This document shows, in pieces, positions 122 through 11,858 of a stretch of 17,270 bases of DNA. Origin of the DNA: a virus (Duplodnaviria; Heunggongvirae; Uroviricota; Caudoviricetes). Under the pieces are notes generated by a model. That model was given only the letters and a program-made list of their open reading frames with translations. It was not told the DNA's origin and did not search any database. The translations under genes and the position numbers were made by a program. The first letter of the stretch is position 1; every line of letters starts with the position of its first letter. Location: the IMG/VR virus record IMGVR_UViG_2778261247_000012; one strand, 5' to 3'.

Positions 122-206
122 GCCGAAGTGGCGAAATCGGTAGACGCAGTTGATTCAAAATCAACCGTAGAAATACGTGCCGGTTCGAGTCCGGCCTTCG
201 GCACCA
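122..206 (+). tRNA. leuX: tRNA-Leu (anticodon CAA), 85 nt, ending in CCA
   Basis: Sequence GCCGAAGTGGCGAAATCGGTAGACGC...TTGATTCAAAATCAA...GGTTCGAGTCCGGCCTTCGGCACCA has the type II tRNA layout with a long variable arm and a CAA anticodon loop. I recognise it as E. coli leuX, a classical P4-family integration target. Confidence 0.9.
186..206 (+). other. attL core: tRNA 3' end repeated imperfectly at 11836-11858
   Basis: TTCGAGTCCGGCCTTCGGCACCA here versus TTTGAGTCCGGCCTTCG-CACCAC at 11836-11858, with a 14-bp exact core GAGTCCGGCCTTCG. The integrase gene lies immediately adjacent. Confidence 0.75.
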
Positions 207-357
207 TTAGTCTTTCCAAGACCATCCGAGAAAGTCCAATTATCCCTTTAAAATCAATGCTTGAAGCAATTTTTACGTTCTGAGTTGTCCGAGATAGTCC
301 GTTGAAATCCGGATGTCATTGGGGGCATAATTGGGGGCATCTTAACTTCGATTAGAA

Positions 358-1624
358 ATGTGCCCCCAAATGAAGCTCAATGCCAGACAGGTCGAAACCG
401 CAAAGCCAAAAGAAAAAACCTACAAAATGGCCGATGGCGGCGGTTTGTATCTTGAGGTTTCGGCCAAGGGTTCCAAATACTGGCGTATGAAATACAGACG
501 CCCCTCTGACAAAAAAGAGGATCGCCTTGCTTTTGGTGTTTGGCCTACTGTGACGCTTGCTCAGGCAAGAGCAAAGCGCGATGAAGCTAAAAAGCTCTTA
601 GTGCAGGGTATAGATCCGAAAACTGAACAGAAACAAGCTCACGCCGAAAATTCGGGGGCATATACTTTCGAAACCATTGCTCGTGAATGGCATGCCAGCA
701 ACAAGCGATGGAGCGAAGACCATCGATCGCGCGTTCTTCGATACCTTGAGCTTTATATCTTCCCTCATATTGGTTCGTCCGATATTCGTCTACTCAAAAC
801 CAAGCCACCTGTTAGCCCCAATTAAAAAAGTTGACGCCAGTGGAAAACACGACGTCGCTCAGCGCCTGCAACAGCGTGTAACGGCCATTATGCGTTATGC
901 TGTACAAAACGATTACATCGACTCAAATCCGGCCAGTGATATGGCTGGTGCGTTATCTACAACCAAAGTGCGACATTACCCTGCGTTACCTTCCAGCCGG
1001 TTACCTGAGTTTCTTTCACGTCTCGCTGCATATCGTGGTCGTGTAATGACACGGATCGCAGTCGAGCTCTCCTTACTGACTTTTGTGCGTTCCAGTGAGT
1101 TACGTTTCGCGCGTTGGAATGAGTTCGACTTCGATAAAGCCCTTTGGCGCGTACCTGCAAAACGAGAGGAAATTAAGGGGGTGCGTTACTCGTATCGTGG
1201 TATGAAGATGAAAGAGGAGCATATTGTTCCGCTTAGTCGTCAGGCGATGAATTTGTTAGGCCAGTTAAAGCAGATTAGTGGTGATAGGAAACTGCTTTTC
1301 CCTGGCGATCATGACGCAACTAAGGTTATGAGTGAAAACACAGTAAACAACGCATTGCGTGCGATGGGATATGACACTAAAACCGAAGTCTGTGGGCATG
1401 GGTTTAGGACGATGGCTCGAGGGGCATTAGGGGAGTCGGGTTTGTGGAGTGATGATGCTATTGAGCGTCAATTGAGTCACTCAGAGCGTAATAATGTGCG
1501 TGCAGCTTATATCCATACTTCTGAGCATTTGGATGAACGTCGTTTAATGATGCAGTGGTGGGCAGATTATATAGATCATAATAAGATTATGTATACAACT
1601 CCGTTTGATTTTGCAAAAAAATAA
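358..1624 (+). pseudogene. int: P4-family tyrosine integrase, disrupted by a +1 frameshift near 775-780
   Basis: Two overlapping ORFs in the track (358-825 in frame 1, 677-1624 in frame 2). The first gives the integrase N-terminal arm domain (KLNARQVETAKPKEKTYKMADGGGLYLEV...). The second gives the catalytic domain (...HIVPLSRQAMNLL..., ...GHGFRTMARG..., ...RQLSHSERNNVRAAYIHT...). The join maps to GGTTCGTCCGATATTC, consistent with a single-base indel. Confidence 0.8.
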
Positions 1625-1639
1625 TTATTATTTGATATT

Positions 1640-1700
1640 TTTTTATTCATGATTGCGATGAAGGAAAATTTAATTTTCTCCATCGCGTTATATTTTTAAT
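1640..1700. terminator. Putative bidirectional terminator between convergent int and the TIR-STAND gene
   Basis: Imperfect hairpin GCGATGAAGGAAAATT / AATTTTCTCCATCGC (1655-1686) flanked by T-rich runs on both sides. Confidence 0.45.
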
Positions 1701-11306: not shown

Positions 11307-11330
11307 GACCGGCATCTGCCGGTCTTTTTT
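11307..11330 (+). terminator. Rho-independent terminator after alpha
   Basis: GACCGG-CATCTG-CCGGTC hairpin followed by TTTTTT, 17 nt past the alpha stop codon. Confidence 0.6.
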
Positions 11331-11344
11331 CATCCCTGAATCCC

Positions 11345-11635
11345 CCGAAGGTGAACAATCCAGTGTTCACCCTTCACCGTATATTCACCCGTTATCACAC
11401 TGAAATTAAAAGAGAAAAACGAAAGGTGAACAGTGTGAACAATCAAATCAAAAAAAACTTTTTTTCTTCCTGTGTGATTTTCAGTGCGGAGGATTAATCA
11501 CCGGTATGAGTCACACCGGCAGAATGCCGGAGGTGAAGAATCGAATGTTCACCCTTCACCCATTATTCACCACCTATCATACTGAAATAAAAGGAGAAAA
11601 AAGAAAGGTGAACAGTATGAACAGTTCTTTCGAAA
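11345..11635. repeat. crr: two direct repeats of about 110-120 bp carrying TGTTCACC iterons
   Basis: Copy 1 at about 11345-11455 and copy 2 at about 11528-11635 align closely (GGTGAAcAATCcAgTGTTCACCCTTCACC...ACTGAAAT.AAAAGAGAAAAA.GAAAGGTGAACAGT.TGAACA). Confidence 0.75.
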
Positions 11636-11835
11636 AAAAATTTTTATGTGGATAAAAGATGCACTGGTTTGGATCCGGGCTACGGATCCAAACTTACTGA
11701 TTAAAAATTATTTAACTTTCCGATTTATTGATGGGCTGAAAGTAGATTGGTCAGAAAAACAGTGGGGGCACAAAAGGGGGCATATTTCATTGTTGTGTTT
11801 TATTATTTGTTTTTTATCATTAACTTATTTTAATG

Positions 11836-11858
11836 TTTGAGTCCGGCCTTCGCACCAC
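11836..11858 (+). other. attR: imperfect copy of the leuX 3' end, right boundary of the satellite
   Basis: TTTGAGTCCGGCCTTCGCACCAC versus the tRNA 3' end at 185-207; 14-bp exact core. Confidence 0.7.

Follow-up and report, generated by a model that had tools for sequence, protein, structure and literature searches.

A P4-like satellite prophage at leuX of avian-pathogenic Escherichia coli with a TIR-NLR cargo gene, its own immunity allele and a frameshifted integrase gene

Phage P4 and the P4-like satellites are the closest described systems to the element presented here, which lies in a 17,270-base stretch of Escherichia coli chromosome (IMG/VR record IMGVR_UViG_2778261247_000012, hereafter the window). 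A hotspot for defence genes located between psu and int has been described in P4-like satellites (Rousset et al., 2022; PMC9122126), while the P4-like family recognized by SatelliteFinder comprises seven core genes in a canonical order, i.e., those of Psu, Delta, Sid, AlpA, Epsilon, Alpha and Int (Moura de Sousa et al., 2023; PMC10085698). Immunity in P4 relies on the CI RNA, whose pairing with the sites seqA and seqC terminates transcription (summarized in PMC4825925). Our analysis revealed that positions 187-11857 of the window are a P4-like satellite prophage, site-specifically integrated at the 3' end of leuX in avian-pathogenic E. coli (APEC). We hold with good confidence that it is a satellite which was immobilized very recently and which still supplies the TIR-NLR defence gene, probably along with an immunity of its own.

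The window matches at 100% identity the corresponding region of DE17, from a duck in China, and of VTB96815v, from a chicken in South Africa, and is almost identical to those of APEC IMT5155 and PMV-1; its right end is formed by nanS. Gene functions were assigned on the basis of near-identity to P4 together with the established biology of this phage, using NC_001609 (X51522) as reference. The alignment to P4 that had been proposed as a check in a preliminary description of the locus was performed with blastn and resulted in three colinear blocks, without any rearrangement of the backbone:

Window 183-1576, the int side, corresponds to P4 4101-2709 (89.4% identity).
Window 4319-4346 followed by 4347-7363 corresponds to P4 28-1 followed by 11624-8608 (97.8%), and spans the joined cos ends.
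Window 7422-11857 corresponds to P4 8504-4078 (97.5%).

Outside int and the immunity leader, DNA identity to P4 is approximately 97.5%. The only backbone stretch departing from P4 in the alignment is 7300-7555, and no P4 homology was detected by blastn between 1576 and 4319. The window shares with P4 the gene order, the attP core with six arm repeats, cos, ori, crr, the PLE/CI region and integration at leuX. The preliminary description had proposed a near-complete P4-like satellite of about 11.65 kb at leuX, with its control circuitry readable in the sequence. This was borne out, as the unit length is 11,652 bp (11,624 bp in phage P4), all the parts that had been listed were recovered at or near the positions assigned to them and far above chance, and the control elements could be identified against P4 and Rfam. 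The parts are also in P4 order, as had been claimed, apart from ori, which sits between sid and vis and not after alpha.

The limits of the element are defined by the following features:

122-206, plus strand: leuX, tRNA-Leu(CAA), found by ARAGORN and by the Rfam tRNA model (59 bits).
187-206: attL core GAGTCCGGCCTTCGGCACCA, which is the last 20 nt of leuX and an exact match to the P4 attP core.
318-369, minus strand: left arm-type repeats of Int, with GGGGGCAY at 321-328, 333-340 and 360-367, coinciding in position with the arm repeats annotated in P4 attP.
654-661: fourth arm-type repeat, inside int.
11761-11857: attR, with arm-type repeats at 11764-11771 and 11776-11783 and the core at 11839-11857.
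11873-11897: leuX terminator, after attR.

Six GGGGGCAY arm-type sites are present in the window against 1.0 expected, all of them at P4 positions. A query consisting of window 21-206 joined to 11858-12060 was searched in complete E. coli genomes, and an empty leuX site in one piece was found in 105 of them, with a best identity of 100% (e.g., in APEC O1). Since the flanks join seamlessly in these 105 genomes, the boundaries of the element are exact and the junction lies precisely at the 3' end of the tRNA gene; the att repeats are not coincidental, and the preliminary description has passed the refutation test that it had named. Both repeats are indeed present, but the two copies are not the same: attL matches at 20/20 positions and attR, with the core GAGTCCGGCCTTCG-CACCA, at 19/20, having one G fewer than attL and the attP of laboratory P4.

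The integrase gene, next to attL, is where the present copy is damaged:

358-1624, plus strand: int pseudogene of a P4-family tyrosine integrase, which aligns to P4 int with a single gap.

The gap corresponds to an extra A at window position 802 (CCA-A-GCC), i.e., a +1 insertion in a non-homopolymer context. Whether read from the ATG at 358 or from that at 370, the frame reaches a stop at 823-825 after approximately 148 native residues and before the catalytic domain, which is out of frame (677-1624). No slippery motif was found in the sequence at the frameshift. When the extra base is removed, int encodes a protein of 421 aa, 391 residues of which are identical to P4 Int. The gene shows 89.4% DNA identity to P4 int and differs also in its C-terminal tail; its codon differences from P4 are 100 synonymous and 20 nonsynonymous. 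RefSeq marks int as frameshifted in three assemblies originating from different laboratories and countries, namely those of DE17, VTB96815v and IMT5155. The same element, with the same cargo, occurs in PMV-1 and FEX669, where int is uninterrupted (WP_021038235.1), as it is in every other sister element looked at. An assembly artefact was considered and rejected, given that three independent assemblies share the insertion in a non-homopolymer context; the mutation is real, recent and lineage-specific. In DE17, VTB96815v and IMT5155 there is only one place matching the window, and therefore no second close P4 copy is present to supply Int. Judging from the sequence, the present copy probably cannot excise, and a PCR for the excised circle, as had been suggested, would be expected to fail in the present strain. 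The earlier view of the element as recently functional and not decayed is thus literally true but needs to be qualified: almost every part, the cargo gene included, is intact, yet that view did not examine int, the attR core is one G short, and the present copy is most likely immobilized.

Outside int, the window and PMV-1 differ by three single-base indels (at 1638, 11633 and 12612), which could be errors on either side. In IMT5155 (locus L005) the TIR-NLR gene is split into two open reading frames (ORFs; 1700-4173) and alpha is flagged as frameshifted (8955-11289), neither of which is the case in the window. These breaks may represent further decay or homopolymer errors in an older assembly.

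The remaining backbone genes are as follows:

4511-5083, minus strand: psu, capsid decoration protein and Rho antagonist, 190 aa (98.4% to P4 Psu; Pfam Psu 291.9 bits).
5157-5657, minus strand: delta, transactivator of helper late genes, 166 aa (97.0% to P4 Delta; Pfam Ogr_Delta in two stretches).
5654-6388, minus strand: sid, capsid size determination, 244 aa (99.2% to P4 Sid).
6941-7207, plus strand: vis, AlpA-type excisionase/regulator, 88 aa (98.9% to P4 ORF88; Pfam Phage_AlpA).
7561-8942, plus strand: the left-operon genes kil, eps, orf151 and orf106/cnr, given separately in the next four lines.
7561-7758, plus strand: kil, Icd-like (100% to P4; NCBIfam phage_ICD_like).
7751-8038, plus strand: eps (98.9% to P4; Pfam Derepression).
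8031-8486, plus strand: orf151 (98.7% to P4).
8622-8942, plus strand: orf106/cnr (100% to P4).
8957-11290, plus strand: alpha, primase-helicase, 777 aa (99.0% to P4 alpha; Zn ribbon, Toprim, D5_N and Pox_D5).
11307-11330: alpha terminator.

The nine proteins encoded by psu, delta, sid, vis, kil, eps, orf151, orf106/cnr and alpha have exactly the P4 lengths and are 97-100% identical to their P4 counterparts. Over the nine genes, the codons differing from P4 comprise 59 synonymous and 22 nonsynonymous ones, and the backbone has evolved under purifying selection. The sites for packaging and replication are the following:

4319-4392: cos region, with the 19-nt cohesive end GGCGAGGCGGGGAAAGCAC (reverse complement) at 4328-4346, an exact match to the P4 ends.
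6533-6800: ori, with six type-1 iterons (TGTTCACC/GGTGAACA) at 6558-6661 and three type-2 10-mers at 6766-6795.
11345-11645: crr according to the P4 annotation, made up of two direct repeats of 119 nt (11345-11463 and 11527-11645), both of which contain type-1 iterons.

The P4 end junction falls between window positions 4346 and 4347, and the cos region is 90-95% identical to the cos regions of P2. The ori repeats are identical to the annotated P4 ori repeats, and the octamer GGTGAACA occurs 13 times in the window compared to an expectation of 0.5.

Where P4 carries gop-beta-cII, the window carries a TIR-NLR gene:

1577-4318: variable cargo hotspot replacing P4 gop-beta-cII, GC content approximately 30%.
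1700-4174, minus strand: TIR-NLR anti-phage gene, 824 aa (TIR, STAND NTPase and TPR).
4221-4192: promoter-like site of the TIR-NLR gene, from a promoter scan.

This is the sole gene of the hotspot. Its product is matched over its full length (1-824/824) by the PADLOC model PDLC03015 with 1878.7 bits, contains Pfam TIR_2, and is 98% identical to the proteins in PDB entries 9m0n and 9umd. Its accession, WP_021038236, is listed as a 'TIR_2' locus in Table S1 of Rousset et al. (2022; PMC9122126), so that the window shares with the satellites of that study both the cargo accession and the cargo position adjoining cos; the survey did not address the integrity of int or the immunity alleles. A Klebsiella TIR-NLR was shown to defend against many phages, including P2-like ones, and to lower P2-mediated transduction of P4 (PMC9122126). 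In other strains the same leuX site and backbone harbour a Kiwa-like set, an NTP-binding pair, gop-beta-cII or an ABC-three-component-like set. The unit length of sister elements with other cargo ranges from 11.1 to 12.06 kb, which is consistent with a packaging size limit.

A further difference from P4 concerns immunity, the components of which are arranged as follows:

7243-7272, plus strand: PLE promoter, TTGCCT-18-TATAGT, from the promoter/terminator scan.
7243-7356, plus strand: PLE and untranslated leader, with seqA at 7304-7327 and a terminator hairpin at 7336-7350 followed by a T run.
7419-7506, plus strand: CI RNA, the immunity antisense RNA, with seqB at 7463-7484 (Rfam C4, 86.1 bits, gathering score 45).
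7511-7549, plus strand: seqC, which is the second target of CI and lies immediately ahead of the kil ribosome-binding site; it has the same two boxes as seqA, complementary to seqB.

The Rfam models for the immunity RNAs (RF01695, RF03163 and RF01394) all scored above their gathering thresholds, with isrK, covering the seqA leader at 7279-7356, reaching 73.4 bits (gathering score 50) and c4-a1b1 at 7266-7318 reaching 49.6 bits (46.7). The leader is 45 bp shorter than that of P4, while the CI RNA has the same architecture as P4 CI and a predicted fold of -53 kcal/mol. The boxes of seqA, seqB and seqC were derived from sequence complementarity, and three alleles were distinguished among eight aligned leuX elements, with matched boxes in each:

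P4 and T309: seqA and seqC GTGAGAA...TTCACAGG, seqB CCTGTGAA...TTCTCAC.
IHE3034: seqA and seqC GTGGAAA (first box changed), seqB TTTCCAC.
The window, PMV-1, FEX669 and CFIA: seqA and seqC GTAGGAA...CTTCAAGG, seqB CCTTGAAG...TTCCTAC.

Every change in a box occurs at all three sites, so that complementarity is kept. For the window allele, the predicted duplexes amount to -31.0 kcal/mol for seqB-seqA and -25.7 kcal/mol for seqB-seqC, while values between -14.6 and -23.4 kcal/mol were obtained for crosses with the P4 and IHE3034 alleles; cognate pairs are the strongest. The immunity module thus looks functional in sequence terms, and, as seqA, seqB and seqC have changed in a coordinated manner, heteroimmunity of the element to P4 is predicted. 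Heteroimmune relatives of P4 exist, e.g., retronphage phiR73. A comparable arrangement is found in the C4 immunity of phages P1 and P7, where the loop of a processed antisense RNA likewise pairs with two targets in its own operon and specificity shifts through matched changes in the RNA and both targets. In contrast to these C4-type relatives, the window allele represents a third box combination already common in E. coli, and it was detected at an identity of at least 99% in 132 of 5,426 complete E. coli genomes. The type of immunity assorts independently of the type of cargo, the same allele being found with TIR-NLR and with an NTP-binding cargo. A separate observation concerns annotation: the RefSeq/PGAP pseudogene "ash family protein, incomplete" (7159-7536) overlies the non-coding PLE leader and the CI RNA. 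This call is an annotation artefact inherited from the obsolete "cI protein" ORF of P4.

Taken as a P4-type circuit, these parts would operate as follows. In the lysogen, PLE would transcribe the leader, which would be processed to CI RNA, and the seqB loop of the latter would pair with seqA and seqC on nascent transcripts. Transcription would then end before kil-eps-orf151-cnr-alpha, keeping the left operon off. In the presence of a P2-type helper, Eps would derepress the helper, Delta/Ogr would activate the late promoters and Alpha would replicate the element from ori with crr. Sid would force the formation of small capsids, which Psu would decorate, the helper terminase would cut at cos, and Vis and Int would excise the element. 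The departures from P4 are three, namely the size-for-size exchange of the non-essential gop-beta-cII region for TIR-NLR, the different immunity allele and the lineage-acquired +1 frameshift in int. In the present strain this pathway would be broken at excision because Int is truncated, and without Int the prophage would therefore not be excised, circularized, packaged or re-integrated.

Some points weigh against this reading. A 1-bp frameshift can revert, and Int could be provided in trans by an incoming related satellite, so that immobilization is not absolute. Furthermore, the single-G attR, which is universal in the occupied sites examined, may be harmless for excision. Finally, TIR-NLR defence has been demonstrated for the homologue of Klebsiella pneumoniae SB5442 and not for the window allele (PMC9122126).

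It could also be argued that the satellite is fully functional and mobile, and is transduced with a P2-type helper, the int frameshift being either an error or a lesion that is bypassed or complemented. Apart from int, the whole element is intact and shows purifying selection, the cos, ori, crr and arm sites are exact, PMV-1 and FEX669 have the same element with an intact int, and the empty sites in related strains are evidence of turnover at the locus. However, an error is hard to reconcile with the same non-homopolymer insertion in three independent assemblies, bypass with a shifted frame that stops at 823-825 and offers no slippery motif, and complementation with the lack of a second close P4 copy in these genomes. 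We therefore regard full mobility of the present copy as very unlikely.

Another interpretation, to which we attach an equally low probability, is that of a domesticated or cryptic remnant. According to it, the satellite functions are unused and the element is a chromosomal carrier of TIR-NLR, all P4 elements at leuX being locked by a defective attR and exchanging cargo by homologous recombination. Apart from the int pseudogene, the sequence of attR is relevant here. A single-G attR core was found in every occupied leuX site examined; these included elements with five kinds of cargo, sites whose right flank differs and one site whose left arm is unrelated. GG is present in the tRNA gene, in the 105 empty sites and in laboratory P4 attP. 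With a query containing the full GG core, none of the 726 genomes that gave a match reached 100%, and in most full-length matches the matched part of the record was shorter than the query by 1 nt. Three further occupied-site contexts were fetched and each showed a single G. The cargo itself could be seen as conflicting with a satellite lifestyle, as TIR-NLR reduced P2-mediated P4 transduction (PMC9122126). On the other hand, an unused remnant would not be expected to look as this element does: the nine other ORFs retain P4 length, 97-100% identity and a low nonsynonymous fraction, all cis-acting sites are exact, and the unit remains of packageable length across cargos. The immunity alleles co-vary at three places, indicating continuing selection on regulation, none of the other sister elements looked at has a broken int, and 105 genomes have clean empty sites.

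As for its origin, the single-G attR may be a scar of long standing that these sites have in common, or else a variant of attP occurring in nature. The form CTTCG-CACCA was seen in the window and in loci L001 and L004-L014. A circular or plasmid form with the reconstructed attP junction was sought in PLSDB and in complete E. coli genomes, and no record covering it was found. We consider it rather unlikely that the single G is more than a trivial scar, in the sense either that the natural attP of the P4 family differs from the laboratory reference, with strand exchange 3' of that G, or that the leuX satellites have been locked in since ancient times, with homologous recombination as the means of exchanging cargo and immunity modules.

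As far as classification is concerned, the element belongs to the P4-like family. The psu, delta and sid genes form one operon on the minus strand (4511-6388), AlpA/Vis, Epsilon and Alpha follow in that order on the opposite strand, and a P4-family integrase gene is located next to the attachment site at the sequence level. The window thus shares all seven core genes of the SatelliteFinder family in canonical order (Moura de Sousa et al., 2023; PMC10085698), with the difference that, int being a pseudogene, a protein-based call would assign it to Type B (N-1) and not to Type A. Among the properties of a complete, self-mobilizable Type A element, it has the insertion site, cos, a size that fits the small capsid and ori/crr, but lacks an intact int frame.

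To the right of attR, between leuX and nanS, the chromosome carries a small low-GC islet of its own (11858-16289), which is also present in empty-site genomes. It was considered as a second integrated island and rejected, as no third att core was found (allowing up to 3 mismatches or 2 edits) and the stretch occurs in empty-site genomes. Its content is as follows:

12547-14583, plus strand: ORF of 678 aa, GC content approximately 30%.
14982-15161: peptidase gene fragment.
15206-16078, minus strand: phosphorothioated-DNA-dependent HNH restriction endonuclease (NF045808, 438 bits).
16178-16282: fragment of another HNH gene; both fragments flank the endonuclease within 14982-16282.

For the 678-aa ORF, no match was obtained in Pfam, NCBIfam or PDB, and PADLOC gave only a hit with E=0.0013. 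Homologues occur solely in E. coli, Salmonella and a small number of further Enterobacterales, UniRef naming one of them 'NERD domain-containing', and the indel at 12612 changes its annotated start and length (587 aa in PMV-1). Lying beside a type IV restriction enzyme, it is a candidate defence gene.

Public resources already contain the satellite family and its hotspot, the cargo protein, the families of the RNAs and the int pseudogene flag, the locus with its int frameshift being annotated in RefSeq, and nothing reported here is new in kind. Given that a large proportion of E. coli genomes carry P4-like satellites at tRNA genes, the importance of the findings beyond annotation is small. They do imply that the low-GC genes to the right of attR should be treated as chromosome and not as satellite, and that co-immunity of the element with P4 should not be assumed. 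Moreover, if the satellites at leuX are locked in, the int frameshift of the present lineage, whose TIR-NLR cargo is known to block P2 helpers, would mark a stage in the domestication of a satellite into a fixed defence island.

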